Positions 23,046-42,902 of a DNA stretch of 64,000 nt are shown here, in pieces; within the stretch, counting starts at the first letter, position 1, and the number at the start of each line of letters is the position of its first letter. A program made the position numbers and the translations under genes. The notes beneath the pieces were generated by a model, which had not been told where the DNA came from, ran no database searches, and saw only the letters and a program-made list of their open reading frames with translations. Source of the stretch: Ignavibacteriales bacterium (lineage in GTDB: Bacteria; Bacteroidota; Ignavibacteria; UBA10030; UBA6906); assembly GCA_037441705.1 (NCBI GenBank), contig JBBIRR010000012.1:15001-79000 (forward strand). The letters run 5' to 3'.

Positions 23046-23047
23046 TC

Positions 23048-24970: not shown

Positions 24971-25044
24971 ATCAGGACCGACCCTACAATGAGGATTGCT
25001 GCTCGTCGTTCAGTGTGAACAGAACTCGCAAGGCGCCATCGCGT

Positions 25045-26529: not shown

Positions 26530-26662
26530 GCGCCACCCACTGTTTGTGATTCGAGAAGTTGACTTCGAGGATGCAAGCCGACGGAAGGACGTGAAGCCTG
26601 ACTCGCTGGCTCCAATATAACAAATCGGGAGTCAAGTTCCACGTGTGGGCTCGGCCTTTGTT

Positions 26663-27907: not shown

Positions 27908-27942
27908 CCTCTGACGAGAGTGAGGGAGAGTGAAAAACGAAA

Positions 27943-29142
27943 TCACAGTGCGTTGAGTGTTGCCTGGATGACTTCGTCCGTTCGTTCTTGCATGCGGTGC
28001 AGCAGCTCTTCGGAAGGACGCGCAGCAAGACGTATGGTGGCGCATGCCGTTTTTCCACCATCGAACACAACGTTTTCCATCTCTTCGACGTTGATGTTCG
28101 AAGCCTTCAGGTCACCCAGGATGTTGGCAAGCACGCCCGGCTTGTCGTAGTGACGAACGACGAGCTGCCAGGTGGCGGCGGTTTTCTTCGCGCGGTTGAC
28201 CCAGTTGCGCACGGTTCCCTGCCGGATGTATTCGCGTATGATGGCAACGGTTTCTTCGGCGACGGCATTCTGTGCCTGTTCGGTGGAAGCTCCGATATGG
28301 TGTGTGCCGTAGACGTTGGGCAGAGAAGCAAGCTTGCTCGTGAACGTTCCTGTCTTGTCCTCCGGCTCACCAATGAAGACGTCCGACCCGACGCGAATGC
28401 GCCCGGCAGCGGCGGCCTCGGCCAGCGCCCCCTCGTCCACGACCTCGGCGCGAGAAGTGTTGATGAAGATCGTTCCGGGCTTCATCATCTCGATAATGCT
28501 TCTGTTGATGAGTCCCTTTGTCTCCGGTTTGAGGGCCACATGGACCGAGAGGATATCGCATTGCGTGACAAGGTCCTGAACGGTTCCTGCGAAATCTATC
28601 CCGAGCGCAGCAGCTTTTTCGCGCGTGAGCGACCGTGACCAGCCGATCACGCGCAGGCCGAATGCCTTTGCCCGTGGAATCATTTCCCGCCCGATCTGCC
28701 CCACACCGATCAAGCCGAGTGTTTTGCCGAAAATGCCGTCGGCTTTGGAGTATTCACCCTTGTTCCATTTTCCGGCCCGCAGATCAATCACGTTATCCGC
28801 GATGCGACGATCGAGTGCCAGAAGCAATCCCATGGCAAGCTCCGCTACTGCAATCGAGTTTTTGCCGGGGCAGTTCGTAACATAGATGCCGCGCTCGTTG
28901 GCACTTGCAATATCAATCGTGTTGACTCCCGCGCCTGCCCTAATGATCATCGTCAGGGCCTTTGCCGATGTGATGCAGTCGGCTTTCACCTCGGTGGAGC
29001 GAACGACGAGGATGTTCGAGTCGCCGATATGGGCGCGCAGTTCTTCGGATTTGAGTTTCGGCTTGTACTCAACCTCAACCCCCAATTCCTTGATCTGCTT
29101 GAGGTATGGTTCGGGGAAGGCATCGGCAATCAGGGCTTTCAT
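27943..29142 (-). CDS. D-3-phosphoglycerate dehydrogenase-like D-2-hydroxyacid dehydrogenase with C-terminal ACT domain
   Basis: RAGAGVNTID, NSIAVAEL, GVGQIG, INTSR, HHIGAST; ACT motif HYDKPGVLA. Confidence 0.85.
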   Translation of the reverse strand: MKALIADAFPEPYLKQIKELGVEVEYKPKLKSEELRAHIGDSNILVVRSTEVKADCITSAKALTMIIRAGAGVNTIDIASANERGIYVTNCPGKNSIAVAELAMGLLLALDRRIADNVIDLRAGKWNKGEYSKADGIFGKTLGLIGVGQIGREMIPRAKAFGLRVIGWSRSLTREKAAALGIDFAGTVQDLVTQCDILSVHVALKPETKGLINRSIIEMMKPGTIFINTSRAEVVDEGALAEAAAAGRIRVGSDVFIGEPEDKTGTFTSKLASLPNVYGTHHIGASTEQAQNAVAEETVAIIREYIRQGTVRNWVNRAKKTAATWQLVVRHYDKPGVLANILGDLKASNINVEEMENVVFDGGKTACATIRLAARPSEELLHRMQERTDEVIQATLNAL

Positions 29143-29174
29143 GGGTGATCACGTCCTTTGATGATGATGGATGT

Positions 29175-30215
29175 TTATCGCGAATTCCTCACATATTTGA
29201 GAACCGCCCCCGCTTCGATCCCTAACCGGTCGGTCACGACTACGTAAACCCTTCCGTCATCTGACACTGCAACATCGAGCGGCACCATCGAGTACCCACC
29301 TACATCCGGGATGCTGTAGCGGGCGATAGTGCGTTCCGAGAGTGTCGCAATCACTATCAACTCCTGCGTGGCGGGGTCTGTAATATACAAATTTCCCGAT
29401 GCATCCATAGTCGATCCCAGTGCCGCGCCCGTGACAAAGGGCTCGGCCAAGCCATGGCTGAGGTTGGGACTCGACGGTGAATACGAATAGATACGTACAC
29501 GCGCTGGCGTACCCGCAAGGACGAAGGAGGTGAACACCGTGCCGAATCTATCTGCGGCGACGAAATGCGGACCTCGCTCGGCGGGGTTCTGCGGCGTCGA
29601 TGCCGACGATGCAAGGGCAGTTGCCGCTCCTGCCCGAATGCGTACGAGAAAGTTCTCCGGCGTCCCGTAGCAGCCGACGAATACATCGCCCGTCAATGAT
29701 CCGTCAAGATCGCCGAGCAGTTGAACGTCGAGCGTGAGGGCGCCCATCGTACGGGTGTTCACGTCGAAGATCGAAGAGCCGTCAATGGTCGTTCCGTTCA
29801 ACGTTGTGATAATCAGCGCCGTGCCTGTCTGTGGGTTGATGCGGTTGATCGTCAGGTTGTCGATCACGAGGAGCGTGTTGTTCGAGCGATCTATTCCCAT
29901 TCTCGTAGGGAAGGAGAATCCGACAACGGAATCCTGAAGCACACCGTCGGCAGAAAAGCGGCGGACCTTCCCTGCACGTGTATCGGCAACCCACACGTTA
30001 CCGGCGGCGTCCACCGAGATGCCCTGCGGCTGTCTCAGTACGCCAACAGGAACGAACACCGAAGGTAAGGAAAGGAAAGTTGCCTCGGATGGCTGTCCGG
30101 ATTCATTCTTGCAGGATGGGGCAGAGATGATCTGCGCAGCGAACAGTGCTGCTATCAGCGTTCTGCGTGCTGTTGTTTTTCTCGACATGATTGCCTTGCA
30201 GCGGCGTGCGTCCAT
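29175..30215 (-). CDS. Secreted or lipid-anchored NHL-repeat beta-propeller protein
   Basis: Signal-like N-terminus ending in SC; NHL repeats PQGISVDAAGNVWVADT, DASGNLYITD, PLDVAVSDDGRVYV; start may be 30188. Confidence 0.7.
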   Translation of the reverse strand: MDARRCKAIMSRKTTARRTLIAALFAAQIISAPSCKNESGQPSEATFLSLPSVFVPVGVLRQPQGISVDAAGNVWVADTRAGKVRRFSADGVLQDSVVGFSFPTRMGIDRSNNTLLVIDNLTINRINPQTGTALIITTLNGTTIDGSSIFDVNTRTMGALTLDVQLLGDLDGSLTGDVFVGCYGTPENFLVRIRAGAATALASSASTPQNPAERGPHFVAADRFGTVFTSFVLAGTPARVRIYSYSPSSPNLSHGLAEPFVTGAALGSTMDASGNLYITDPATQELIVIATLSERTIARYSIPDVGGYSMVPLDVAVSDDGRVYVVVTDRLGIEAGAVLKYVRNSR

Positions 30216-30561
30216 GTTCCGTTATTGAAGATATGAACAAACGGGAGACTCGCAAGCGTCGAGTACGGCGCGTTGATTTTTTCAACTCGCTGCTGCGGTA
30301 CTCTACATAAACCTAACCTGTTGTGCTTAAGGCAGAAAGGCGAACGCGCTGCCCGGCGCTGTTGAGTTTCACACCAACGTCCGGACGATTGCGAAGATGC
30401 ATTGTCGTAAAGAGATTCGGCGTCCTTGCAACGCTCTCGCCATCAACGAGTTACGACACCCGGCAAGATCGAGAAAAATGCTCACGAGCTGGCAAACTTC
30501 TTGGAGCATTCGGAGATGTGGTGATTTCCCAGAACTGACACAGGAAGGAAAGGAGCCGACA

Positions 30562-31203
30562 ATGTCAGTGCTATTAGCTGTCGCGACGGCAATCGTGCTC
30601 GTCATCTGGGGCATAGGACGAAAGCATAAGCCCGCCGACGTCGTGAAGCCGGTGTTTGTGAGGCGCTACATCCATCCCGGCCACACCTGGATGCGGATGA
30701 CGGAGGATGGCGACGTGCTTGTGGGGATCGATGACTTTGCCCAATCGCTGATTGGGACAGTCGACGAGGTGACGTTGCCCCGTTTGCTCAAGCATCTGGA
30801 CCAGGGTGGTGTAGCGTGGCGCGTCAGGCATCGTGAGCGCGTGGTGCCGATGGTCAGTCCGGTCAGCGGACGAGTGATTGACCGAAATGAAATGGTGCTG
30901 CGCGATCCTATGCTCATCAATGCTTCACCCTATGGCGATGGATGGTTGCTTCGCGTTCGACCGAGAAAGCTGAAGGTTCAACTGAACAATCTCTTCGAAG
31001 GAAAAGTCGGCCAGCAGTGGATTGAGATGGCGAGGAGGCAATTGAACCGCCTGTTCAACGGCACACCTGCGCTCATGTATCAGGATGGGGGTGTGATGGT
31101 GAATAATCTCGCCGACCGCTGTTCGGACGAGGAGTGGAGGAAAGTGGCAAAGGAGTTTTTTCTTGTTGAGCCGGACAGTGTACCAGAAACTGTGCATCCA
31201 TAA
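30562..31203 (+). CDS. Membrane-anchored GcvH-fold protein lacking the lipoyl-Lys (copy 1)
   Basis: AGGAG RBS; N-terminal TM; HPGHTW, VGIDDFAQ, SPVSG, PYGDGWL; Glu at the lipoyl-Lys position. Confidence 0.85.
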   Translation: MSVLLAVATAIVLVIWGIGRKHKPADVVKPVFVRRYIHPGHTWMRMTEDGDVLVGIDDFAQSLIGTVDEVTLPRLLKHLDQGGVAWRVRHRERVVPMVSPVSGRVIDRNEMVLRDPMLINASPYGDGWLLRVRPRKLKVQLNNLFEGKVGQQWIEMARRQLNRLFNGTPALMYQDGGVMVNNLADRCSDEEWRKVAKEFFLVEPDSVPETVHP

Positions 31204-31221
31204 CGGGAGTACTGGATCGTC

Positions 31222-32130
31222 ATGACAAAAAACACACGCCGAGATTTTCTCAAAGTAAGCGCCGCTGCCGGGGCTGCCCTTGCCTCAGCGTCGCTGCAGC
31301 CGGCGAAAGCCGGGCCGAAGAACATTCTTTCCCCCGATCGCATGGGCGTCCTCGTGGACACGACGGTTTGCGTCGGCTGCCGCTCATGCGAGTGGGCATG
31401 CAAAGTTGCACACGAGCGACCCACACCGCCGCTGACGGAATATGAGGATACGTCGGTTTTCGCCAGCCAACGCAGACCGGATCCGGAGTCTGTTACGGTG
31501 GTAAACAAGTACGATGAAGCAGGCACGGAAGGAAGCCCGGTGTACGTCAAAGTTCAATGCATGCACTGCGACCATCCATCGTGTGTCTCGGCGTGCATCG
31601 TTGGCGCGTTTACAAAAGAGGAAAACGGTTCGGTCATCTGGGATACGAACAAATGCATCGGCTGTCGGTACTGCATGGTTGCGTGTCCGTTCCAGGTGCC
31701 CGCCTTCGAATTCAACGAAGCGCTGAAGCCCGATGTGGTGAAATGCGATTTTTGTTTTTCGCGAACGAAGGACGGCAAACTCCCCGCATGTGTGGAGACC
31801 TGCCCTGTTGAAGCTCTCACGTACGGTCCTCGAACAGAGTTGATCAAAGTCGCGCGGGAACGCATCCGCCGCTCGCCCGAACGGTATATCAGCCACATCT
31901 ACGGCGAACACGAGGCCGGCGGCACATCCTGGATGTATCTGGCACGCAAGGACTTCGCAAGTCTCGGATTGCCGAACGTCGGGACGCATGCGATGCCGGG
32001 GACCTCGGAGTCTATTCAGCATGGGATTTTTGCGTACTTCATTCCCCCTGTGCTGCTGTACGCCATGTTGGGGGGAGTTATGTGGGCAACACGGCGCAGG
32101 AAAGAATCTGAACACGAGGAGCTCAAATGA
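31222..32130 (+). CDS. Tat-exported 4x[4Fe-4S] protein, NrfC/HybA/HmcB family (copy 1)
   Basis: TRRDFLK signal; CVGCRSCEWAC, CMHCDHPSCVSAC, CIGCRYCMVACP, CDFC...CVETCP; C-terminal TM. Confidence 0.92.
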   Translation: MTKNTRRDFLKVSAAAGAALASASLQPAKAGPKNILSPDRMGVLVDTTVCVGCRSCEWACKVAHERPTPPLTEYEDTSVFASQRRPDPESVTVVNKYDEAGTEGSPVYVKVQCMHCDHPSCVSACIVGAFTKEENGSVIWDTNKCIGCRYCMVACPFQVPAFEFNEALKPDVVKCDFCFSRTKDGKLPACVETCPVEALTYGPRTELIKVARERIRRSPERYISHIYGEHEAGGTSWMYLARKDFASLGLPNVGTHAMPGTSESIQHGIFAYFIPPVLLYAMLGGVMWATRRRKESEHEELK

Positions 32131-33395
32131 ATTCCGTACATCACAAACCGCAACCGATGACGGCGCCGTTCTTCACGCCGGGAGTGATCGTTCTGATCGT
32201 TCTTGCGCTGAACGGACTCGGCTTTCTTCTGGCGCGATTTCTCTTCGGCATCGGTGCCGTGACGAACTTGAACAATCAATATCCGTGGGGGATCTGGATC
32301 GCGATTGATGTTGCTGCGGGCGTCGCCCTTGCGGCCGGGGGCTTCACCACGGCTGCGCTGGGCCACGTCATGCACAGAGAAGAATACCACGTCGTCGTGC
32401 GACCGGCACTCCTGACCGCCATGCTTGGCTACACGTTCGCTGCTCTTGCCGTGTGCATTGACCTCGGGCGCTGGTACTACATCTGGCACCCGCTGATCAT
32501 GTGGAACGGCAACTCCGCGCTGTTCGAAGTCGGCATGTGCGTGATGATCTACATGACGGTGCTCTACATCGAATTCATTCCCATTGTGGCCGAACGCTTC
32601 GTCGGAAGAATCAATCTGCCGGGCATACTCGCGCGGCTCAACAAGCCGCTCGATGCGATCCTGCGGGCGCTCGACCGCGGCCTCTCCAAAACGATGTTCA
32701 TCTTCATCATCGCGGGCGTGGTTCTTTCCACCCTCCATCAGTCCTCTCTCGGAACGCTGATGATCATAGCGGGACCGAAAGTGCATCCGTTGTGGCAGAC
32801 CCCGATTCTGCCCCTCCTGTTCCTGCTCTCTGCCATCTCGGTCGGTTTTCCGATGGTGATCTTCGAGTCAATGATTGCGTCGCGATCGTTTGGGCTGAAG
32901 CCGGAAATGGATGTGCTGTCTCGTCTTGGGTCCTTCATGGGGCCGCTGTTGAGCATCTACCTTGCCTTCAAGATCGGCGACATGGTGATTCGCGAAAGCT
33001 TCGTGTATCTCGCGGAGATCAATACCGCAAGCGTCATGTTTGCCATCGAGGTTGTTGTCGGCGTGGCGATTCCTTTGCGCATGTTCCTCTCGGAGCCGGT
33101 GATTCGCTCGCCCCTGTGGCTCTTCGTCGCCTCGTGCCTGGTCGTGTTTGGCGTTCTGCTCAACAGAATCAACACATTCATCGTGGCGTATAACCCGCCG
33201 TATGCCGTGAAGCCCTACTTTCCCTCGCTGGGAGAAATCTCGGTGACCGTTGGGTTTGTCTCGCTTCTGGTTCTTCTCTATCGGGTGTACGTGCGCACGT
33301 TCCCCGTCATCAGCGTGGCTGAACCGGTGCCGAAGGCAAGAGTGAAGTATGCGATCCGAAGTCTGCAGGAAGCTCCTGCAGGAGGTCAGTCATGA
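32127..33395 (+). CDS. NrfD/HybB/HmcC-family integral membrane subunit (copy 1)
   Basis: YPWGIWIAIDV, DLGRW, LSTLHQSSLG, NRIN; about 10 TM segments; ATGA overlap with the Fe-S gene. Confidence 0.9.
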   Translation: MNSVHHKPQPMTAPFFTPGVIVLIVLALNGLGFLLARFLFGIGAVTNLNNQYPWGIWIAIDVAAGVALAAGGFTTAALGHVMHREEYHVVVRPALLTAMLGYTFAALAVCIDLGRWYYIWHPLIMWNGNSALFEVGMCVMIYMTVLYIEFIPIVAERFVGRINLPGILARLNKPLDAILRALDRGLSKTMFIFIIAGVVLSTLHQSSLGTLMIIAGPKVHPLWQTPILPLLFLLSAISVGFPMVIFESMIASRSFGLKPEMDVLSRLGSFMGPLLSIYLAFKIGDMVIRESFVYLAEINTASVMFAIEVVVGVAIPLRMFLSEPVIRSPLWLFVASCLVVFGVLLNRINTFIVAYNPPYAVKPYFPSLGEISVTVGFVSLLVLLYRVYVRTFPVISVAEPVPKARVKYAIRSLQEAPAGGQS

Positions 33396-34537
33396 AAAGA
33401 ATCGTAATTGGGGCGGTATCGGTATTCGTCGGCATTGCCGCATTCGGCCAGAGCACCGACACCCGAGTGCGGCCGGTGCCCGGCATGACGTGCATGACGT
33501 GCCACAGCGTCGAGGTGCCGACAAAAGAAAACCCGGCGCTTCGCAGTTGCCCGCGCACACTGATGGCAACAGTCAAGCATACGGCCGAGGAAGGTCCGGA
33601 CATCATTGTGATGAATGCGCTCTCGGACAGTGCGAGCCTCTATCTGCCCGTACGCTTCACGCACAAGGCGCACGCGGAGATGTCGGAGATGGCGGGCGGC
33701 TGCACGATGTGCCATCACTACAATCCTCCGGGGCGCGTACTCGGTTGCGGCGAGTGCCACGAAGTGAACAGGCTGCGGACCAACCTCGGACGTCCCGACC
33801 TGAAAGGCGCGTATCATCAGCAGTGCCTGAATTGTCACAAGCGTTGGAGTGAAGATACCGGCTGTCGAAGCTGTCACGCGCTGCGGACTCAAGCGGGGGG
33901 AATTCAGAGCGAGAAGGCGGCGAAGAGCGTTCGCAAGCATCCGGTGGTGGCAAAGCCTGCGCGGGTTGTCCGAGAAACGGCGTACGAAGAAGGGCGCTTT
34001 GTAACTTTCTACCACAACGAACACATCGCCCTTTTTGGTCTGGAATGCGCGGACTGCCATTCCAGTGAGAGTTGTCTGCGCTGCCATCAAAAGGGGAAGC
34101 GTGCATCGGCGCAGCCGGCGGCGGCAAGCCTCGGACACGAATCGTGCGAACGCTGCCACAACGTGAACGAGAACTGCAATCGTTGCCACGATGCTGAACC
34201 AAAGCCCGGCTTCGATCACCAGCGACGCTCCGGCTGGGCATTGAAGCAATATCATGAGCAACTGAACTGCAATCGCTGCCACACAAAGAAAAATGTTTTC
34301 GTCGGTCTCTCAAGCACCTGCACCTCCTGCCACAAGCCGTGGACTCCTGAGAACTTCCGGCATGCTGTGGTAGGGCTGACGTTGGATCAAACACACGCCG
34401 CCCTTAGCTGCGAGGTTTGCCACGCGGACGAGAAGTTTGCAAAACCTTCCTGCGAGGCGTGCCATGAAGGCTACACGTATCCGGAAAAGTCACCCGGCAA
34501 GCGCGTGAAGCGCCTTGCTGTCGCAAAAGGGAAGTGA
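33392..34537 (+). CDS. Periplasmic multiheme cytochrome c, 13 CxxCH motifs, containing a c3-like module
   Basis: Sec signal; CMTCH, CTMCH, CGECH, CLNCH, CRSCH, CADCH, CLRCH, CERCH, CNRCH (twice), CTSCH, CEVCH, CEACH; FTHKAH and AYHQQC c3 signatures. Confidence 0.92.
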   Translation: MKRIVIGAVSVFVGIAAFGQSTDTRVRPVPGMTCMTCHSVEVPTKENPALRSCPRTLMATVKHTAEEGPDIIVMNALSDSASLYLPVRFTHKAHAEMSEMAGGCTMCHHYNPPGRVLGCGECHEVNRLRTNLGRPDLKGAYHQQCLNCHKRWSEDTGCRSCHALRTQAGGIQSEKAAKSVRKHPVVAKPARVVRETAYEEGRFVTFYHNEHIALFGLECADCHSSESCLRCHQKGKRASAQPAAASLGHESCERCHNVNENCNRCHDAEPKPGFDHQRRSGWALKQYHEQLNCNRCHTKKNVFVGLSSTCTSCHKPWTPENFRHAVVGLTLDQTHAALSCEVCHADEKFAKPSCEACHEGYTYPEKSPGKRVKRLAVAKGK

Positions 34538-34540
34538 GTC

Positions 34541-36418
34541 GTGAATTCGAAGCTGTTCCGAAAACTTGGCTTTCGCCTGATCGTCGTTGTCAGCATCACG
34601 ACCATCGTGATCATCGGCGTGTATTCGTACTTCAGCATTCGGACGCAGCGGGCAATGCTGCTCGATGAGGTGGAGCGCCATGCGAATCAACTGAGCGAAA
34701 CCGTCAGGAAAAGCACGCGCTACGGCATGTTGGTGAATCAGCGAGAGCAGGTACACAAGATCATTAACGATGTCGGCACCGATCCGGCGATCCATGAGGT
34801 ACGGGTCTTCAACAAAGAAGGCGTCATCATCTACTCGTCGCGACAGGAGAACATCGGCCACGTTGTGGATAAGAACGCGGAAAGCTGCTACAAGTGTCAT
34901 GCAGCGGACCGTCCGCTGGAGCGGCTGCCGGATGTGGAGCGCACCCGGATCTTCCGCGTCCATCCTGACTCGTCGAGGATCCTCGGCGTCATCGCGCCGA
35001 TCTACAACGAGCCTTCATGCTGGCAGGGTGACTGTCATGCACACAGCAGACAGCAATCGGTGCTGGGGGTGTTGGATGTAACGTATTCGCTGGCGGACGT
35101 TGACCGCAAGATTGCGATGAGTCAGGTGGAGCTTGCCGTGTTTGCGCTTGCTGCCATCGTTGCCGTCAGCCTCATCATCATCTTCTTCGTCCGGCGTTGG
35201 GTGGTGGTTCCCGTCGACGCGCTTGTCGCGGCGACGCAGCAGGTAGGCAGCGGCAATCTGAGCTACCGCATCGGCGAAATGGGAGACAATGAACTCGGAA
35301 TGCTGGCGCGATCGTTCAACACTATGACGCAGAAACTCTCCGAGGCGCGCCTGCAGCTGTTCCAATCCGACAAGATGGCCTCGCTCGGCCGCCTTGCGGC
35401 AGGAGTTGCACACGAACTGAACAATCCGCTTACCGGCGTCCTCACATATAGTTCGTTCCTTCTCAAGCGAGCGAATAACGATCCCGCGCTGCGCTCCGAC
35501 CTGGAAGTGATCGTCCGCGAGACGACGCGCAGCCGTGAGATCGTAAAGAGTCTGTTAGACTTTGCACGTCAATCCGTTCCGAAGAAGTCGCCTGCGAATC
35601 TCAATCAGATTGCCGAACGGGCCATCGCCGTCGTGGAAAAACTCCCCGCACTGCGCGGGATCAGGATCATCCGTCAGTTCGATGAGAACCTGCCGGAAGT
35701 GACGGTGGATGCGAATCAAATGCAGCAGGTATTCACCAACCTGCTGGTGAACGCGGCGGATGCGATTGGGGACAAGAGCGGCACCATCACCATCGGCACG
35801 AAGCTTTCCACACTTCCGCCGTATGGGGTTGCCCGCATCAGGAAAGCCCTCTGCCCCAAGCGCCACGACTTGATGGACGAAGAATGCAAGATTGACGGGT
35901 TGCCTTCCATCAGAGTGAAGTCCCGCTGGAACGGCAACGAAGGCTTCATTCATCTCGACCCCGTCTATGGCAAGCGTCGGCACGAGTACGGCTACCCCGT
36001 ACCAGCAGGCAAAGAAGTAGAAGTCGCTTGCCCGCATTGCGGCGCTACGCTCATCGAGCGTGATGTGAAGTGTCCGCAGTGCGGCGCATCGAGCTTTGCC
36101 TTTGAAGTTCCACCGGCGGGAAAATTCAGAGCATGTGCGCGCAAGGATTGTGAGTGGCAGCGATGGGATGCGCTGGAGGCAGACGGCAAGCAGGAGTATG
36201 TAGAAGTGACGGTCAGCGACACCGGAGCGGGAATACCGGAAGAGCATCTAGGAAAAATCTTCGAGCCGTTCTTCTCAACAAAAGGACAAAAAGGAACGGG
36301 GCTGGGACTGGCGGTGATCTGGGGGATCATTGATAATCATAACGGAACGATTCGCGTGCAAAGCGAAGTGGGAAAGGGGACGACATTCACAATCCGGCTG
36401 CCGCTGCAGCAGAGGTGA
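34541..36418 (+). CDS. Sensor histidine kinase with heme-c motifs in the periplasmic domain, HAMP, and a Cys-rich insert in the ATPase domain
   Basis: Two TMs; CYKCH and CWQGDCH; H-box AHELNNP; N-box NLLVNA; DTGAGI, FEPFFSTK, GTGLGL. Confidence 0.92.
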   Translation: MNSKLFRKLGFRLIVVVSITTIVIIGVYSYFSIRTQRAMLLDEVERHANQLSETVRKSTRYGMLVNQREQVHKIINDVGTDPAIHEVRVFNKEGVIIYSSRQENIGHVVDKNAESCYKCHAADRPLERLPDVERTRIFRVHPDSSRILGVIAPIYNEPSCWQGDCHAHSRQQSVLGVLDVTYSLADVDRKIAMSQVELAVFALAAIVAVSLIIIFFVRRWVVVPVDALVAATQQVGSGNLSYRIGEMGDNELGMLARSFNTMTQKLSEARLQLFQSDKMASLGRLAAGVAHELNNPLTGVLTYSSFLLKRANNDPALRSDLEVIVRETTRSREIVKSLLDFARQSVPKKSPANLNQIAERAIAVVEKLPALRGIRIIRQFDENLPEVTVDANQMQQVFTNLLVNAADAIGDKSGTITIGTKLSTLPPYGVARIRKALCPKRHDLMDEECKIDGLPSIRVKSRWNGNEGFIHLDPVYGKRRHEYGYPVPAGKEVEVACPHCGATLIERDVKCPQCGASSFAFEVPPAGKFRACARKDCEWQRWDALEADGKQEYVEVTVSDTGAGIPEEHLGKIFEPFFSTKGQKGTGLGLAVIWGIIDNHNGTIRVQSEVGKGTTFTIRLPLQQR

Positions 36419-36424
36419 CGTGCC

Positions 36425-37204
36425 ATGAGCAAGCAATACGATCTGTTGGTGATTGATGATGAACCGGTGGTGTTGGATGCGGTCGTCAGAGTGTGCGGCG
36501 CGCATGGGATCAGTGTTGATGGTGCCTCCGATTCCCACGCGGGTCTGCGCCGCCTGCAGGCCAATCGGTATCGGCTCGTCCTGTGCGACATCATGATGCC
36601 CGACCTCGACGGCTTCCAACTTCTCAGCCGCATGCTGACGCAATCGCCCGATACGCCGGTGGTGATGACCACGGGGTACTCCACCATCGAGCACGCCGTC
36701 CGCTCGCTCAGCAGCGGAGCGATCGGCTATCTCCCCAAACCATTCACAGAAGAAGAACTCATCAGTACCGTTCAACGGGGTTTGAACTTCTCCACGATGA
36801 TACGTGCAGGAAACCTCGATGCCGCCTGCCCGGACCACTACTACGCGCTCGGCTTCATCAGCTGGGCAAAATTGGAGGAGACAGGAGCAGCCCTCATCGG
36901 TGCAGCCGATCTCTTCCTCAAAGCGATCGGGACAGTGAAGGAAGTACGTTTAATCTCACCTCAGGAAGAAATTGTGCAGGGGACAACATGTGCACGCATC
37001 GCTTCGATGACCGACCTGCTGCACGACGTGCTCGCTCCGATCAGCGGCAAGATTTTGGAAATCAACACAAAACTGCAGACTGATGTGGGCATCCTGCAGC
37101 ACGATCCGTATGGGCAAGGCTGGCTCTACCGGGTTGTTCCAGAAGATATTGAATACGAGATCAAACAACTTTCTGTTGGCGGGTTGGTGGAGAATAAAGA
37201 ATGA
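36425..37204 (+). CDS. Response regulator: receiver + GcvH-fold domain
   Basis: IDDE, LCDIMMPD, TTGY, LPKPF; then SWAK...IGAADLF...LAPISGKILEIN...DPYGQGWL. Confidence 0.85.
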   Translation: MSKQYDLLVIDDEPVVLDAVVRVCGAHGISVDGASDSHAGLRRLQANRYRLVLCDIMMPDLDGFQLLSRMLTQSPDTPVVMTTGYSTIEHAVRSLSSGAIGYLPKPFTEEELISTVQRGLNFSTMIRAGNLDAACPDHYYALGFISWAKLEETGAALIGAADLFLKAIGTVKEVRLISPQEEIVQGTTCARIASMTDLLHDVLAPISGKILEINTKLQTDVGILQHDPYGQGWLYRVVPEDIEYEIKQLSVGGLVENKE

Positions 37205-37306
37205 GCAGCGGATGTTTTTTGTCGTGCAGATTCTCTGGAGTCCCTCTTCCTATGAGAGAGGAGGAAGGGTGAGGCTGTAAAGAACCAAACTCAGGAGACA
37301 TGAACT

Positions 37307-38470
37307 ATGGCCATCTTCATCTTAGCTGTAATCACATTTATCATCGCTGATCTTCTGCTACGCTACGGGCTGAAGACGTGGAAGGAACGAAAAATTCGGC
37401 GGGAGCGCGAAGAAGCGCTGCAAACGAGCCTGCGCCTCGACTTCAGTCGTGAGGCGAAGACGCTCAAGCGAGTGACCGTTGAGCACCCGAAGGCACGCAT
37501 CCTGTGTGTCGATGACGAAGAAGTCGTCCTCGACAGCTTTCGAAAAATCCTTGTGCTCGATGGCTACTCCGTTGATACAGTGATGTCGGGGAAAGAAGCG
37601 CTCGGCCTCATCCAATCACATCATTATGACTTTGTCTTTACGGACCTGAAAATGCCGGAGATGTCCGGTGAAGAGGTGACCAAAGCGGTGAAGCACCTCA
37701 GGCCCGATATTGATGTCATCATCATCACGGGCTACGCGACCGTGGAGTCTGCCGTCGAGTGCATGAAATATGGCGCGATGGATTACATCCAGAAGCCGTT
37801 TACGGAAGATGAGCTGCTCGACATGACCCGGAAGTTCGTCATTCGCCGGAACGAGCGCATCAAGAAGGAGTTGAAGCCGCGCGTGCACGTCACGCATCTG
37901 CCGAAAGCAGAAGGGCTTCTCGAATCGGAGTTTGCGATTCCCGGCGGCGTCTTCATCTCCGAGGGGCACACGTGGGCTTGCATGGACGAGGACGGCACGG
38001 TGAAAGTGGGGCTGGATGATTTTGCCAAGAAGTTCATCGGCAGGATTGATGATCTTGAAATGCCGAATCTGGGTATGACGGTGAAGAAGGGACAGCCGCT
38101 GTTCTACGTCAAGCAAGGCTACCGCACGATTCCCTTCAGCAGTCCCGTCAGCGGGCGCGTTGCGAAAGTGAACGCCGCGCTGAAGGGAGATTTGAAAGCA
38201 TTGGATGTGACGCCGTACGGCGACAATTGGGTCTGCGTCATTGATGCCGACCATCTCGACGATGAAATCCCGAAGTTGAAGATCGGGAAAGCGGCGGTTT
38301 CGTTCTACCACGACGAACTTGAGCATGCCCACAAGTACGTTCATCGCGCGGCCGGCAACGGCCAGGACGGAAGCGGCAACGGCTCGTCCGAAGCATTCAA
38401 GTCCGGAGAGCTTGAAAAGCTGAATGACAGAGAGTGGGATGAGGCAGTGGCGGAGTTTTTTAAGCGGTGA
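37307..38470 (+). CDS. Membrane-anchored response regulator: TM + receiver + GcvH-fold domain
   Basis: AGGAG RBS; N-terminal TM; VDDE, TDLKMP, ITGY, IQKPF; then GHTWA, VGLDDFA, SPVSG, PYGDNW. Confidence 0.88.
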   Translation: MAIFILAVITFIIADLLLRYGLKTWKERKIRREREEALQTSLRLDFSREAKTLKRVTVEHPKARILCVDDEEVVLDSFRKILVLDGYSVDTVMSGKEALGLIQSHHYDFVFTDLKMPEMSGEEVTKAVKHLRPDIDVIIITGYATVESAVECMKYGAMDYIQKPFTEDELLDMTRKFVIRRNERIKKELKPRVHVTHLPKAEGLLESEFAIPGGVFISEGHTWACMDEDGTVKVGLDDFAKKFIGRIDDLEMPNLGMTVKKGQPLFYVKQGYRTIPFSSPVSGRVAKVNAALKGDLKALDVTPYGDNWVCVIDADHLDDEIPKLKIGKAAVSFYHDELEHAHKYVHRAAGNGQDGSGNGSSEAFKSGELEKLNDREWDEAVAEFFKR

Positions 38471-38471
38471 T

Positions 38472-38532
38472 GTAGGTCGAATCTCCAGATTCGACCCCTT
38501 AGGCCCGGAGCCGAGAGAGAGTCTCGCACTAC
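38472..38532. repeat. Inverted pair of GTAG-type REP-like palindromes
   Basis: GTAG overlapping GGTCGAATCT-CC-AGATTCGACC (10-bp perfect stem, 38475-38496); on the opposite strand GTAG-tg-CGAGA-ctctc-TCTCG ending at 38532. Confidence 0.5.
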
Positions 38533-38551
38533 AAAGAAGGAACATACCACC

Positions 38552-39418
38552 ATGAACCGAAGAACCTTTGTACGAACGATCGGCGCGGCGGGGGCTTCAG
38601 CTCTTCCGATATGTGTCGGACGCGCAGAGCAGGAAACACCTCCGAAGGAGTTCGTCGGTGTTCTCGTAGATACGACTCGCTGCGTGGGATGCCGGAGCTG
38701 TGAGATGACATGCGCCGAAGTGCATGGATTTCCGCAGCCCGATCCCGACGAGGCGGTGTTCGCGAAGGAACGATCGCCCTCGACAACGCAGTGGACGCTC
38801 GTCAATCGTTACAACACCGACAAGGGCGAGGTATTTGCCAAGAAGCAATGCATGCACTGCAACCAGCCGGCATGCGCATCCGCCTGTCTCACGAAGGCAA
38901 TGCTGAAAACGGAAGAAGGTCCCGTCATCTGGCGTGAGCCGAAATGCATGGGGTGTCGCTTCTGCATGATCTCCTGTCCGTTCGACGTGCCGAAATTCGA
39001 ATACGACAGTCCGATGCCCCGGATTCAGAAGTGTACGCTATGCTGGGAGCGGTTGCAGGAGGGCGAGCAACCTGCATGCGTGGAAGCGTGTCCGGCCGAA
39101 GCGCTGCAATTTGGTAAGCGTCGTGAGTTGATCGAAGAAGCGCGGCGGCGCATCGTCGAAAATCCGGAAGAGTATGTACACCACATCTATGGCGAGCATG
39201 AAGCCGGCGGAACATCGTACATGTACCTCTCGAAAGTTCCGTTCGAACAACTCGGCTTCCGCACGGACCTCGATACGACTTCGTATCCCGAACTGAGCAA
39301 GGACTATCTCTACGCCGTACCAATTGTGTTGACACTCTGGCCGGCATTTCTGCTCGCGCTGAGCAACGCCACGAAGAAGGAAGGCGAACCGGGCGAAGGA
39401 GGAGGTGGCGATGAATAA
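38552..39418 (+). CDS. Tat-exported 4x[4Fe-4S] protein, NrfC/HybA/HmcB family (copy 2)
   Basis: NRRTFVR signal; CVGCRSCEMTC, CMHCNQPACASAC, CMGCRFCMISCP, CTLC...CVEACP; C-terminal TM. Confidence 0.92.
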   Translation: MNRRTFVRTIGAAGASALPICVGRAEQETPPKEFVGVLVDTTRCVGCRSCEMTCAEVHGFPQPDPDEAVFAKERSPSTTQWTLVNRYNTDKGEVFAKKQCMHCNQPACASACLTKAMLKTEEGPVIWREPKCMGCRFCMISCPFDVPKFEYDSPMPRIQKCTLCWERLQEGEQPACVEACPAEALQFGKRRELIEEARRRIVENPEEYVHHIYGEHEAGGTSYMYLSKVPFEQLGFRTDLDTTSYPELSKDYLYAVPIVLTLWPAFLLALSNATKKEGEPGEGGGGDE

Positions 39419-40703
39419 GGACAGTCACGCTCTGGCACTTGTTGCAAGCGAAGCCAGACGCTTCGCAACCTTCATCCTTCAGGAGTTGAAGCCGAAGGGG
39501 AAACTCCTGACGCCGTTCAACATCTTTGCCGCGGTGGTTCTCCTGGTGGCTGCGGTTCTCCTGTTCATTCGCTTCACGAAGGGACTCGCCTACGCCACCA
39601 ACCTGTCGCAGGATTTCCCGTGGGGGATCTGGATCGGGTTCGACGTCATCACAGGCGTTGCATTTGCCGGAGGTGCGTACGTCATCACCTTCATGGTGTA
39701 CGTGCTGCGGTTGGAGAAGTATCATCCGATCGTTCGGATAACTGTTCTGAATGGTTTTCTCGCGTACGTGTTCTATGCGGGCGCGCTGCTGTTCGATCTC
39801 GGTCGTCCGTGGAATGTCATCAACCCTATCATCGGGAATGACTTCGGCGTCAGCTCCGTCATGTTCCTTGTCGCGTGGCACTTTATGCTCTACATGATCA
39901 CGGAGTTCATCGAGTTCTCCCCCGCCATCGCCGAGTGGCTCGGTTGGAAGCGCATTCGTAAGTTCCTCGGCTCACTCACACTCGGCGCGGTGATTCTTGG
40001 CATTACGCTTTCAACCCTCCACCAGTCGGGACTCGGTGCCCTTTTTCTGATGGCGAAGAACAAGATTCATCCCCTCTGGTACACGGAGTTCATTCCGATT
40101 CTGTTCTTTGTATCGAGCATCTTCGCCGGTTTATCCATGGTGATCTTCGAGGGCACCATCAGCCGTCGGGTGTTCCGCTCGCAGATCAGCCCTGCTCATC
40201 ACGCTGCCCACGACGATATCGTTATCGGGCTTGCACGCGTGTGCGCCGGAACGATGTACGTGTACTTCTTCCTGAAGCTGCTCGTTTTCGTTCATGGTCA
40301 GCATTGGGAGTACATCAACACGCCGATGGGATACTGGTTCCTCGTGGAGATGATCGGGTTCGTACTGATACCGGTACGGCTCTTCACGCGTGCAGTTCAG
40401 TTCGGTAATCTCACCCTCGTTCGCATTGCTGCAGTACTGACCTTGATCGGAATTGTGCTGAACCGGCTGAACGTGTCGGTCATCGCCTACAAGTGGTACG
40501 CCACCGAACACTACGTTCCGTCGTGGATGGAAATTGAAATCACGCTGGCGGTGGTTGTGGCGGAGATCCTGGTCCTTCGCTGGGTCGTGAATCGGATGCC
40601 GATTCTACGAGAGCCGCCAGAGTGGGCAACGGACAGAAGAGGAGGAGAGAAGATACAGTTTTATGTTCGAAAGGAGGAAAAGCAATGGGCAACAACTACG
40701 TAG
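39411..40703 (+). CDS. NrfD/HybB/HmcC-family integral membrane subunit (copy 2)
   Basis: FPWGIWIGFDV, DLGRPW, LSTLHQSGLG, NRLN; GGAGG RBS. Confidence 0.9.
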   Translation: MNKDSHALALVASEARRFATFILQELKPKGKLLTPFNIFAAVVLLVAAVLLFIRFTKGLAYATNLSQDFPWGIWIGFDVITGVAFAGGAYVITFMVYVLRLEKYHPIVRITVLNGFLAYVFYAGALLFDLGRPWNVINPIIGNDFGVSSVMFLVAWHFMLYMITEFIEFSPAIAEWLGWKRIRKFLGSLTLGAVILGITLSTLHQSGLGALFLMAKNKIHPLWYTEFIPILFFVSSIFAGLSMVIFEGTISRRVFRSQISPAHHAAHDDIVIGLARVCAGTMYVYFFLKLLVFVHGQHWEYINTPMGYWFLVEMIGFVLIPVRLFTRAVQFGNLTLVRIAAVLTLIGIVLNRLNVSVIAYKWYATEHYVPSWMEIEITLAVVVAEILVLRWVVNRMPILREPPEWATDRRGGEKIQFYVRKEEKQWATTT

Positions 40704-41368
40704 ATCTCTTTGCGACCAAGGGGCTGGAGTACATCCTGGTCATCGCATTTCTCTTCACGCTTGTCGTGTTCTGGAGATTCCTGAATAGACAGCGGCGTCC
40801 GGCCGTAAGCAATCCAGGAAAGCCCTCACGCCTCGAGTGGTTCACGCTGGGAGATCATCTTTACTACCATCAGGGTCACACGTGGGCTAATCCCGAAGGA
40901 GCGTATGCTGCGCGGGTCGGCATTGACGACTTCGCACAAAAGTTGGTGGGAAAGATGGATTCTATTGAGCTTCCTCCTGTCGGCGCTCATCTCTTTCAGG
41001 GAGAAGTCGGGTGGAAGCTCCGTGTGGGCGACAAGGTCATTGAACTCCTCTCGCCCGTGGAAGGTGAAGTGGTCGCGATTAACGAAGAGGCGAAGAAGTC
41101 CCCTGAGCTGCTCAACCGCGATCCCTACGGCAGAGGTTGGCTCATGCTGGTCAAGCTGTCTTCGATGAGAGGCAACTTGAGGAATCTGCTTTCGGGCGCG
41201 CTCGCCGGAGCGTGGATGGAACAAACCGTTGAGCAACTTCGTCGGCGGATATCGGGCAATCTCGGCATTGCCCTTCAGGATGGTGGCGTTCCCGTGACGG
41301 GAATTGCCAAGAGTATTTCACCGGAGAAATGGGATGAGGTGGCGAAGGAGTTTCTGCTGACGAAATAG
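40685..41368 (+). CDS. Membrane-anchored GcvH-fold protein lacking the canonical lipoyl-Lys (copy 2)
   Basis: AAGGAGG RBS before ATG 40685; TM; HQGHTWA, VGIDDFAQ, SPVEG, DPYGRGWL; Asp at the lipoyl position. Confidence 0.87.
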   Translation: MGNNYVDLFATKGLEYILVIAFLFTLVVFWRFLNRQRRPAVSNPGKPSRLEWFTLGDHLYYHQGHTWANPEGAYAARVGIDDFAQKLVGKMDSIELPPVGAHLFQGEVGWKLRVGDKVIELLSPVEGEVVAINEEAKKSPELLNRDPYGRGWLMLVKLSSMRGNLRNLLSGALAGAWMEQTVEQLRRRISGNLGIALQDGGVPVTGIAKSISPEKWDEVAKEFLLTK

Positions 41369-41428: not shown

Positions 41429-42829
41429 TCATTCCTCGAAGATCTTTCCCGGATTCAGAATGTTATGCGGATCGAACGTCCGTTTGATTTCTCTCATCAA
41501 CTTCAGATCAACGGGGGAGAGGGCAATGGGGAGATAGGCTTTCTGAGAGTAGCCGATGCCGTGCTCACCCGAAATCGTTCCGCCCAACGAAACGGTGAGG
41601 TGGAAGATCTCGCGGATGGCAGTATCCAGGTGTCTTGCCCATGCTGCGTCATCCATCTTGTCCTTCAGGATGTTCACGTGGACGTTGCCGTCGCCTGCAT
41701 GTCCGTAACAGATGGAGGTGATGCCGTACTTTCCGCAGATGTCCTTCACGCCGCGGATGAGTTTCGGCAGTGCGGCGCGTGGGACAACGGTATCTTCTTC
41801 TTTGTAGGTCGAAATCTTCTTGACCGCTTCGCCCATGCTTCTGCGCAGCGCCCACACGTCTTCGATCTTCTGGCGATCTTCGGCAAGAAGAACGTCAAGC
41901 GCGTGATGCTGTTCGACGACATCCGCAATCACTTCAATGTCTCTGACGAGAGTTTCGTCGTAGTTGCCGTCAACTTCGATCAAGAGCTGCGCTTCGGCTT
42001 CTCCGTTCGGGAACTTCTTGCCTAACTGTGTCTCTGCTGCGCGCACGGCTGCGCGCTCCATGAACTCGAGCGCCGACGGCGTGACGCCGCGTTGAAAGAT
42101 GGTTGCCACGGAGGCTACGGCGTCTTCGAGTGAGCTGAAGGCCACGAGCAAGACTTTCCTCGCGCGTGGGAGCGGAATGAGTCGGAAGATGATTTTGGTG
42201 ATGACACCGAGCGTCCCCTCGCTTCCGATGAGGAGTTGCGTCAGGTTGTACCCGCTCACGTTCTTGAGCACGTGGCCGCCCGTGTTGATGATCTCTCCGG
42301 TGGGCAGGACGGCTTCGAGACCGAGAACGTAATCCTTTGTCACGCCGTACTTTACAGCCCTCGGCCCTCCGGCACATTCTGCAAGGTTGCCTCCGAGCTG
42401 AGAACTACCGCGTGAGGACGGATCCGGAGGATAGTACAGCCCACGCTTCTCACACTCCTCTTGAAATACCTGTGTGATGACGCCCGGCTCGACCACCGCC
42501 TGAAAATTCTTTTCATCGATCTCGATGATTCGCTTGAAGCGCTCCATCGAAAGCACAATGCCGCCGTACACGGGAAGCGCGCCGCCGGAGAGTCCCGTGC
42601 CGCCGCCGCGCGGCGTGACGGGGATGCGATGCGAGTTCGCGAGCTTCAGGATTTCTGCAACCTCCCCTACAGTCGAAGGCTTGACGATGGCTTCCGGCGG
42701 GAAGGAGAAGTCCTCCGTCTCATCGCGGCTGTGGAGTGCCTTTGCGTCTTCGTCGGTAAGAACAGCCTCTTCACCGACAATCTCGGCAAGTCGGTTGAGG
42801 AGCGCAGGAGTAAGTTTGTTGTACTGCAT
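41429..42829 (-). CDS. FAD-linked oxidase, GlcD/D-lactate dehydrogenase family
   Basis: PRGGGTGLSGG, YPPDPSS, GSEGTLG, GHAGDGNVH, SGEHGIG, LNPGK; start set at ATG 42829. Confidence 0.9.
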   Translation of the reverse strand: MQYNKLTPALLNRLAEIVGEEAVLTDEDAKALHSRDETEDFSFPPEAIVKPSTVGEVAEILKLANSHRIPVTPRGGGTGLSGGALPVYGGIVLSMERFKRIIEIDEKNFQAVVEPGVITQVFQEECEKRGLYYPPDPSSRGSSQLGGNLAECAGGPRAVKYGVTKDYVLGLEAVLPTGEIINTGGHVLKNVSGYNLTQLLIGSEGTLGVITKIIFRLIPLPRARKVLLVAFSSLEDAVASVATIFQRGVTPSALEFMERAAVRAAETQLGKKFPNGEAEAQLLIEVDGNYDETLVRDIEVIADVVEQHHALDVLLAEDRQKIEDVWALRRSMGEAVKKISTYKEEDTVVPRAALPKLIRGVKDICGKYGITSICYGHAGDGNVHVNILKDKMDDAAWARHLDTAIREIFHLTVSLGGTISGEHGIGYSQKAYLPIALSPVDLKLMREIKRTFDPHNILNPGKIFEE

Positions 42830-42902
42830 GGGATTGTTGTTTGGACAAATGTACGAAGTTTCTTGCAAAGGGAAAACCGCACGAGTGGGCGTGGGTGGAC
42901 GT

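Follow-up and report, generated by a model that had tools for sequence, protein, structure and literature searches.

We examined a 64,000-nucleotide stretch of DNA from an Ignavibacteriales bacterium (the window; GenBank assembly GCA_037441705.1, contig JBBIRR010000012.1, positions 15,001 to 79,000 of the forward strand), in which ten plus-strand genes at window positions 30562–41368 (g1–g10) join NrfD-type respiratory membrane subunits and a two-component system to domains with the fold of the glycine cleavage H-protein (GcvH) that lack its lipoyl lysine. These genes are best explained as two nested operons for Nhc/Hmc-type membrane modules, here called cassette A (g2–g7) and cassette B (g1 together with g8–g10). 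We propose that the lysine-less domains serve the NrfD modules as docking parts on the cytoplasmic side and that the cassette A kinase switches them by phosphorylation, a reading that we hold with roughly even confidence. All ten genes were found at the following coordinates with the Pfam domains given:

30562–31203, plus strand: g1, N-terminal transmembrane (TM) helix, lysine-less GcvH-like domain and C-terminal extension with a QDGG motif (Pfam GCV_H, E 7e-20)
31222–32130, plus strand: g2 (HmcB1), ferredoxin of the 4x[4Fe-4S] type exported by twin-arginine translocation (Tat), with a C-terminal TM anchor (Pfam Fer4_11 and TAT_signal)
32127–33395, plus strand: g3 (HmcC1), integral membrane subunit of the NrfD family, HybB/HmcC 10-helix type (Pfam NrfD, E 2e-22)
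33392–34537, plus strand: g4, periplasmic 13-haem cytochrome of the c3/c7 type with an N-terminal signal/anchor
34541–36418, plus strand: g5, sensor histidine kinase with two TM helices, a periplasmic haem-motif domain, HAMP, HisKA and a split HATPase_c
36425–37204, plus strand: g6, soluble protein with a receiver (REC) and a lysine-less GcvH-like domain, without C-terminal extension (Response_reg, E 8e-28; GCV_H, E 2e-16)
37307–38470, plus strand: g7, membrane-anchored protein with a TM helix, REC, lysine-less GcvH-like domain and C-terminal helices (Pfam)
38552–39418, plus strand: g8 (HmcB2), 4x[4Fe-4S]-type ferredoxin with a twin-arginine (RR) signal and a C-terminal TM anchor (Pfam Fer4_11)
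39405–40703, plus strand: g9 (HmcC2), membrane subunit of the NrfD family whose N-terminal peptide (ELKPKGKLLTPFN), predicted to lie in the cytoplasm, is specific to the subfamily
40685–41368, plus strand: g10, HmcD-like TM helix, lysine-less H-protein fold and C-terminal extension with a QDGGxP loop (GCV_H, E 6e-24)
31173–38545, no strand assigned: the cassette A block, 7.4 kb, holding g2–g7 and missing from a collinear locus of the same genus (blastn, junction alignment)

This layout agrees with an earlier interpretation made from the DNA letters alone (the sequence-only reading), which had described ten co-oriented, often overlapping genes with these domains: spacing between successive genes runs from −82 to +102 nt (from listed open reading frame (ORF) starts), and a script counted four overlapping gene pairs. 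That reading had also found no gcvP, gcvT, gcvL, lipoate ligase, hydrogenase, molybdoenzyme or DNA-binding regulator; Pfam searches of the ten genes and their flanks likewise returned none of these.

The GcvH-like domains of g1, g6, g7 and g10 retain the H-protein fold and have lost the residue that carries lipoate. Pfam GCV_H scores above its cut-off for all four, and the GcvH motifs HxW, DDF/DYA, SPVSG and DPY..GW are retained; the more stringent models are not reached (TIGR00527, equivalog cut-off 115.85: g1 57.9 bits, g10 81.4 bits; NF002270, cut-off 117: g6 63.5 bits, g7 60.5 bits). The genome encodes a canonical gcvH as well (contig C24, 155.9 bits), to which the four cluster copies come in addition. 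In an alignment of the domains to this canonical protein, the position of the lipoyl lysine is occupied by E, T, Y and D, the E being that of g1. The lysine is thus replaced in 4/4, as the sequence-only reading had claimed in speaking of four lipoyl-less domains, and alignments show it unconserved in 21 g10, 9 g7 and 7 g6 orthologues. An AlphaFold2 model of g10 (predicted local distance difference test (pLDDT) 87.8, 40 sequences) has a TM helix at residues 5–34 followed by a complete H-protein fold, which superposes on pea H-protein 1dxm_A with Z 19.0 and a root-mean-square deviation (rmsd) of 1.5 Å over 131/131 residues. The model of g7 (pLDDT 75.8, 9 sequences) has a TM helix at 2–41, a REC at 64–188 and an H-protein fold at 215–325 that matches E. 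coli H-protein 3a8i_E (Foldseek TM score 0.91, rmsd 1.5 Å). The g1 helix lies at residues 52–76 of the long ORF. Matches in the ESM Atlas were confined to 'GCV_H family' clusters.

Outside the fold itself, g10 carries two features that are candidate contact sites. Its N-terminal helix resembles HmcD (23.8 bits, cut-off 34; 21/40 orthologues match the HmcD model at E ≤ 0.01). Its C-terminal extension, for which structure comparison gave no match, includes a near-invariant QDGGxP loop (Q198, D199, G200, G201 and P203 fixed in 21 sequences) that is modelled at low confidence (~pLDDT 54), as expected of a contact peptide. Basic residues directly follow the TM helix in g1, g7 and g10, and the H-protein fold of g7 should be cytoplasmic because its REC must be in the cytoplasm to meet the kinase; on these grounds we infer that the H-protein folds of g1, g7 and g10 face the cytoplasm. 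Tandem fusions of two g10-type units also exist, forming 16 protein clusters (P0241–P0256) of ~418 residues whose named sources are Gemmatimonadota; P0241 reads TM helix, fold, extension, fold, extension. In a FastTree phylogeny of 194 GcvH-like domains (105 columns, many forks unresolved), g10 falls within a clade of 73 rows (support 95), g7 within a clade of 8 (support 99), g6 within its own clade of 8–9 rows (support 95–99), and g1 groups with two orthologues (support 100). A weak GCV_H match elsewhere in the genome (contig C26, 44921–45049; 26.8 bits, profile positions 32–75, inside a 447-residue frame) is probably a lipoyl/biotinyl-type domain of another enzyme.

The redox subunits encoded beside these domains are recognizable members of known families, all scoring below the cut-offs of the specific models. 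For g2, the Pfam TAT_signal reaches 25.4 bits (cut-off 22.7), the C-terminal TM helix spans residues 268–287, and NCBIfam gives HmcB 335 bits (cut-off 420) and HybA 261.4 bits (cut-off 263). For g8, HmcB scores 336.4 bits (cut-off 420), the N-terminus reads MNRRTFVRT, and the nearest solved relative is FdnH (1kqf_B, E 2e-35). RR-x-hydrophobic motifs occur in 68/70 iron-sulphur (FeS) orthologues with a complete N-terminus, which would place the FeS clusters in the periplasm. Both NrfD subunits exceed the gathering cut-off of Pfam PF03916 (25.8 bits; g3 80.6, g9 47.4). NCBIfam names g3 as HybB (364.7 bits, cut-off 450) ahead of HmcC (268.4 bits, cut-off 550) and g9 as HmcC (406.6 bits, cut-off 550), and the PDB held no sequence relative of g9. 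By eye, and against the numbering in the accessible part of PMC8076601, residues D131/S151/R354 of g9 and D112/S130/R347 of g3 show the spacing given for HybB and NhcC, which makes the Asp and Ser candidate quinone-site residues and the Arg a candidate for the mid-membrane arginine. The cytochrome g4 contains exactly 13 CXXCH motifs by script count, in line with the 13-haem protein of the sequence-only reading, and 13 are also present in 20/20 orthologues. Its residues 99–165 have the C-terminal domain of HmcA as their best PDB match (2e84_A, E 1e-16), and its c3 domain also matches nine-haem cytochromes (1ofw, 19hc); the full-length models remain distant (9HemeCytC 31.7 bits, cut-off 640; HmcA 59.7 bits, cut-off 400). 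In the window g3 and g4 overlap by 4 nt in different frames; in the L117/L034 genome the NrfD subunit and the 13-haem cytochrome share one stop-to-stop frame (in L117 from ~4052), which could be a real fusion or a missed stop.

The two modules are not the 'twin' pair that they had been taken for: HmcC1 and HmcC2 are 34% identical and HmcB1 and HmcB2 45%, as befits old paralogues. They differ also at the N-terminus of the NrfD subunit. The motif P.G...TP.N, from the N-terminal peptide of HmcC2, is present in 63/68 HmcC2 orthologues encoded with g10-type genes, as against 0/20 HmcC1 and 0/8 HmcC of true hmc operons, and this peptide is a candidate contact site. Complex prediction for g9 with g10 (40-row alignments) gave 0.13, 0.35 and 0.31 against a mark of 0.32, with controls at 0.00.

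Comparison with a second genome of the same genus (G285) revealed how the two cassettes are put together. One contig of that genome (C99) matches window 25044–31172 at 79% identity and then window 38546–39096 at 82%, with 213 nt between the two matches (blastn), and another contig carries on through HmcC2 and g10. The layout there is G'(g1)-HmcB2-HmcC2-g10, with the g1 orthologue, 84% identical, immediately 5' of HmcB2; in the window, G' and HmcB2 are separated by the 7.4-kb cassette A. Because the match to G285 breaks off after 31172 and picks up again at 38546, cassette A lies within cassette B, and by sequence comparison g1 is the 'pre-B' subunit (G') of cassette B. The nesting is a 7.4-kb indel, either an insertion in the window or a loss in G285; the composite layout is also found in L015 and L034. 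At E ≤ 1e-40 a g10/g1-type profile matched 15/401 genomes, of which only two (the window genome and G037) also have cassette A, itself present in 25, although weaker GcvH-like genes may exist in the remaining genomes. The suggestion that a single system is built around the four domains has therefore to give way to two cassettes, mostly found apart (2/25 co-occur), that are joined here by an indel.

We surveyed cassette A in 401 sampled genomes of the phylum, fetching ~20 kb around 20 of the 24 matches other than the window's own. REC plus GCV_H proteins of ~387 residues make up all of the top 120 relatives of g7 (61–100% identity); full-length TM-REC-GcvH proteins form at least 120 clusters, whose named sources are mostly Ignavibacteria or Bacteroidota. 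(A REC-GcvH alignment searched against three genomes retrieved mostly generic receivers and was not used.) The cassette A gene occurs in 25/401 genomes, concentrated in the class of the window (16/22 genomes of family f7) and spread over several families; five other genomes of the window's own genus have it in 0/5. All 20 fetched genomes show one fixed order, namely HmcB1, HmcC1, 13-CXXCH cytochrome, insert-bearing kinase, REC-GcvH and TM-REC-GcvH, so that cassette A is a stand-alone six-gene operon in 20/20. In 17/20 the fetched stretch (~9 kb each side) contains no non-REC GcvH-like gene, which leaves the REC-fused copies as the only H-protein folds of the cassette there. Only one of the 20 (the L034/L117 genome) has g1 upstream and HmcB2-HmcC2-g10 downstream, and in a complete genome cassette A is flanked by unrelated genes, with no gcv or lipoate genes nearby.

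Cassette B is found in many phyla. Of 1551 candidates in a search with g10, 1111 proteins reach E ≤ 0.001; the top 120 span the full length, are 52–99% identical and, where the source gives a name, are called 'glycine cleavage system H'. Database entries for g10-type proteins also carry the Pfam label PF28260. In contigs sampled at one genome per species we found relatives of g10 in 197 stretches and kept 80 loci, assigning synteny classes by BLAST against the window's own proteins (E ≤ 1e-5, stop-to-stop ORFs). According to the labels of the metagenome-assembled genome (MAG) records, these loci span Bacteroidota, Ignavibacteria, Calditrichia, Thermodesulfobacteriota, Gemmatimonadota, Acidobacteriota, Planctomycetota, Myxococcota and others. 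HmcB- and HmcC-like genes lie within 4 kb on the same strand in 72/80 g10-type loci. Where at least 2.6 kb is available on each side (48 loci), 47 loci have FeS and NrfD genes and 44 a further GcvH-like gene, and a kinase lies within 7 kb in 43/48 loci with enough flank. The sequence-only reading had called for a neighbourhood survey and named lack of conservation elsewhere as grounds for refutation; the combination recurs in 47/48 cassette B loci and 20/20 cassette A loci, and the reading is not refuted on this count. The usual form is seen in a Caldithrix abyssi MAG, as G', FeS, NrfD, g10-type gene, kinase, sigma-54 activator, M54 peptidase and multihaem cytochrome. The cytochrome that follows cassette B in this MAG (L036, 14462–15868) belongs to the Cytochrome_cB family (PF11783, E 7e-68), a possible sign of a connection with electron transfer in the periplasm or outside the cell. 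Variants in Thermodesulfobacteriota have a 4-haem cytochrome 3' of the NrfD gene. In the window genome, the trio of kinase, sigma-54 activator and M54 peptidase is found on contig C24 (L138 7173–10760, minus strand), unlinked to the structural genes; the sensor motifs of its kinase, CISCH and CSDAACH, follow the same CxxCH plus Cx4CH pattern as g5.

Between its two TM helices, the cassette A kinase g5 has the haem motifs CYKCH (CXXCH) and CWQGDCH (CX4CH), invariant in 7/7 aligned orthologues and present in 20/20 cassette A loci. The kinase had been termed heme-sensing: the haem-c motifs are there, one of each kind, and the protein is better described as a haem-containing sensor. In the HATPase_c domain of g5, a Cys-rich insert of ~120 residues (~425–545) separates the N box from the DxGxG box. 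In this insert C438, C497, C500, C511, C514, C532, C537 and H442 are invariant in 7/7, including two CPxC pairs; at least two CPxC motifs occur in 16/20 orthologues, zinc-ribbon Pfam matches are below cut-off, and cassette B kinases lack the insert. Such an insert could make ATP binding metal- or redox-sensitive. The receivers are intact: D69, D70, D113, T141 and K163 of g7 are invariant in 9/9, D12, D55 and K105 of g6 in 7/7, and the acidic pocket, phospho-Asp and Lys motifs are present in 40/40 REC-GcvH proteins. Pfam searches of the window and the fetched loci found one kinase and two receivers in cassette A and no DNA-binding protein. From the fixed adjacency of these genes in 20/20 loci, g5 is predicted to phosphorylate g6 and g7.

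The modules are closest to the Nhc and Hmc complexes of Desulfovibrio. NhcABCD, a TpI-c3:quinone oxidoreductase, consists of a cytochrome, a 4x[4Fe-4S] protein, an NrfD subunit and NhcD; as far as the accessible part of the source goes, g2–g4 together with the TM helices of g1, g7 and g10 supply the same kinds of part (c3-type cytochrome, 4x[4Fe-4S] protein, 10-helix NrfD and small membrane part), and a cytoplasmic redox subunit is absent on both sides of the comparison (PMC8076601). That same accessible part describes a cytoplasmic-side half channel in NrfD-like subunits and mentions neither glycine nor H-protein (PMC8076601). Unlike Nhc, g4 has 13 haems instead of the 9 of NhcA, lysine-less H-protein folds predicted to be cytoplasmic are fused to the small membrane subunit or take its place, and cassette A brings its own kinase and two REC-GcvH regulators. 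By description in the accessible text of a preprint, the Cbc4 complex of Geobacter sulfurreducens, to which no function is assigned, has the same three part types, the tetrahaem cytochrome CbcS, the 4x[4Fe-4S] protein CbcT and the membrane subunit CbcU, and that text does not mention H-protein-like neighbours (10.1101/2025.04.14.648717).

The Hmc complex of Desulfovibrio vulgaris (HmcABCDEF) provides the best NCBIfam names for g2 and g8 (HmcB), g9 (HmcC) and the helix of g10 (HmcD-like), and g8 and g9 are 43–47% identical to HmcB and HmcC of true hmc operons. However, the cluster scores below every equivalog cut-off (420, 550, 34 and 400), the ten genes and flanks include no HmcE (cytochrome b) or HmcF (cytoplasmic FeS protein), g4 has 13 haems against 16 in HmcA, and true hmc loci have a REC-GcvH gene in 0/8 cases, with 7/8 having no GcvH-like gene of any kind nearby. 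The remaining hmc locus (L172, 3108–4837, minus strand) has two GcvH-like genes divergent from a bona fide hmcA; the two share a C-terminal motif of the TLPSGG type, a Cys-rich module (C-x12-C ... C-x2-C) is present at the N-terminus of one, and NCBIfam GcvH_rel_desulf scores them at 32–36 bits (cut-off 150). We considered Rrf1 of the Desulfovibrio hmc operon as a possible REC-GcvH protein and rejected this for the loci sampled: 0/8 hmc loci have a downstream REC-GcvH gene, and one has a small stand-alone REC. HybA and HybB of E. coli hydrogenase-2 are likewise a Tat-exported, tail-anchored ferredoxin and a haem-less NrfD subunit, and g2 lies near the HybA cut-off, with HybB the better name for g3. 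In contrast to HybOABC, [NiFe] hydrogenase subunits are absent from the cluster and flanks, and H-protein folds, kinase and cytochrome are extra. The cluster domains share the full fold and signature motifs of GcvH (PF01597, TIGR00527); they differ from it in being membrane-anchored or REC-fused as well as lysine-less, in the C-terminal extension of g10, and in not being encoded with gcvT or gcvP. CheY and RssB are response regulators whose output is binding to a protein instead of to DNA. Like them, g6 and g7 have an intact receiver, no DNA-binding domain and, presumably, phosphorylation-dependent docking as output; unlike them, the output domain is an H-protein fold, one copy is membrane-anchored, and the presumed target is a respiratory module. 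Our searches found no paper linking GcvH with NrfD and, among the papers listed, none linking it with HmcB/HmcC or, by title, with response regulators, supplementary neighbourhood tables being outside the search, and a study of Tat tail anchors contains neither 'GcvH' nor 'glycine cleavage' (PMC10924467). The searchable literature thus gave no described counterpart of the cytoplasmic H-protein-fold parts, in keeping with the earlier statement that no characterised example was known.

These data suggest the following model. In each module, a Tat-exported, tail-anchored four-cluster ferredoxin would sit on the periplasmic face of a haem-less, quinone-interacting subunit of the NrfD type, and module A would add the periplasmic 13-haem cytochrome; the modules would move electrons between the menaquinone pool and periplasmic cytochromes, in one direction or the other. 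All redox cofactors would accordingly lie in the periplasm and the H-protein folds in the cytoplasm, where they may dock on the NrfD subunit from the cytoplasmic side or regulate it from there. These parts would be constitutive in cassette B (g1, and g10 with its HmcD-like helix); in cassette A the H-protein fold would be the output domain of the response regulators g6 (soluble) and g7 (membrane-anchored). Kinase g5 would read the periplasmic redox state via two c-type haems and phosphorylate g6 and g7, changing how their H-protein folds engage module A. In this way quinone-cytochrome electron flow, or its proton coupling, would come under the control of a fast valve that does not involve transcription. 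The model is in substance that of the sequence-only reading.

Several observations weigh against this model. Cassette A HmcC1 lacks the N-terminal peptide of HmcC2 (0/20); should docking occur through that peptide, a different site would be needed in cassette A. In the tree, the g7 clade stands beside the membrane-anchored 'pre-B' forms, with weak support (69–71 on 105 columns). The two fusions that might have joined the proposed partners did not survive inspection: P0257, which alone looked like an NrfD-GcvH fusion, proved to be a gene call with a frameshift, the last third of the NrfD part being out of frame, and a kinase-REC-GcvH fusion in L015 is likewise a frameshift, with the kinase C-terminus out of frame.

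Other explanations of the locus have to be weighed against docking and phosphorylation control. The FeS/NrfD(/cytochrome) module might be a signalling input and not a bulk respiratory enzyme, equilibrating with the quinone pool or periplasmic carriers while the H-protein folds report its state to the kinase(s) or to cytoplasmic targets encoded elsewhere. We regard this as the foremost of the alternatives and still unlikely. It would account for the lack of a catalytic subunit in both cassettes, for the presence of a two-haem-motif kinase with both cassette types (within 7 kb in 43/48 B loci, and in 20/20 A loci), and for the company that cassette B keeps elsewhere with a sigma-54 activator and an M54 peptidase, a trio that the window genome has on another contig. 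Yet sensing would scarcely need equipment as heavy as a 13-haem cytochrome and a four-cluster ferredoxin, and the relatives Nhc, Hmc and HybAB are, in the accessible part of PMC8076601, electron-transfer modules. Moreover, the kinase has haem motifs of its own, which makes a second input unneeded. The H-protein-fold proteins could instead be chaperones, attending the Tat-dependent, tail-anchored FeS subunit, or else the NrfD subunit, through cofactor insertion and export, with the REC forms making assembly conditional on a signal. Tat substrates often have private cytoplasmic chaperones, and the FeS subunits here are Tat substrates with a C-terminal anchor; control of assembly was also allowed for in the sequence-only reading. 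We know of no Tat chaperone with an H-protein fold, however, and the operons encode two or three distinct paralogues, most of them membrane-anchored and one with an anchor resembling the structural subunit HmcD. True hmc operons with similar FeS subunits also manage without a GcvH-like gene in 7/8 loci, and we consider a chaperone role improbable.

More doubtful again, in our view, is that the domains are swinging arms which bear a different prosthetic group at a different residue and deliver reducing equivalents or a small group from the membrane module to cytoplasmic metabolism. The entire H-protein fold is retained, hairpin included, a lysine stands one residue away from the canonical lipoyl site in many g10 orthologues, and around the hairpin of the g6 orthologues a Cys and a His are invariant. 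Against this, no residue at the hairpin tip or adjoining positions is common to all four clades, g10 is free of cysteine, and no ligase or modifying enzyme is encoded in or beside the cluster. With a cofactor-free NrfD subunit and no HmcE/F-like redox subunit encoded, there is no evident electron route to the cytoplasmic face either. Because the domains are predicted to be cytoplasmic, are lipoate-free and have no conserved redox ligand, we do not take them for electron carriers. Least probable, and by our estimate very much so, is that the REC-GcvH regulators act elsewhere, for instance on the true glycine cleavage or lipoylation enzymes, and that their adjacency to the redox genes is incidental. 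The fold is indeed that of a protein that binds GcvT, GcvP and LplA (PDB titles), and the cassettes that an indel joins here are mostly apart elsewhere. But the order of cassette A is fixed in 20/20 genomes of several families, with tight spacing in the window, and gcv and lipoate genes were not found nearby.

The start of g1 is the ATG at 30562, with a GGAAAGGAG Shine-Dalgarno sequence upstream. A scan for sigma-54 promoters (TGGCAC-N5-TTGCW, ≤2 mismatches) gave 21 matches where 31.9 were expected, and the sigma-54-like match upstream of g1 (30490–30505) breaks the GC of the −12 element, and we propose no promoter; sigma-70 and terminator scans were at chance level. Six DNA sequencing runs from five studies contain this stretch wholly or in part, and no RNA run is listed among them. 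Read by eye, the g7–g8 spacer contains a perfect 10-bp inverted repeat at 38475–38496 (GGTCGAATCT-CC-AGATTCGACC) without a T-run, which sits exactly on the boundary between cassette A and cassette B and could be a processing or attenuation site. The cluster is flanked by unrelated minus-strand genes, for an NHL-repeat protein upstream (29175–30215) and an FAD-linked oxidase downstream (41429–43117). Further out, 44412–49520 (minus strand) encodes a 1702-residue hybrid kinase with about nine PAS domains, GAF, HisKA, HATPase_c and a receiver. Window 23042–25043 (~2 kb) is missing from the collinear G285 contig; it includes a minus-strand gene (23645–24970) for a DNA methylase (N6_N4_Mtase) with an SNase-like tail, and resembles a methyltransferase islet particular to this strain.

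Few quinone-coupling devices in anaerobic respiration are more widespread than the NrfD-type modules, and in the accessible part of PMC8076601 they are described with nothing on the cytoplasmic face unless a separate redox subunit is present. The H-protein-fold proteins reported here form a large, multi-phylum family of predicted cytoplasmic partners, for which the names in source records, 'glycine cleavage system protein H' or 'CheY-like', are a warning to annotators. The window holds their constitutive and receiver-fused forms side by side, as separable cassettes. Together, these observations raise a broader proposal, whose chances we put slightly below even: that cassette A is a non-transcriptional two-component system, in which a haem-c kinase acts through a REC joined to a lipoate-free H-protein fold that docks on an NrfD module and gates electron flow or proton coupling within seconds, and that the receiver-less fold is an unrecognised class of cytoplasmic subunit of Nhc/Hmc-like complexes in many phyla. 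If true, these proteins would be a new subunit class of NrfD-type modules, and cassette A would be a case of a kinase acting directly on a respiratory complex and not on gene expression.

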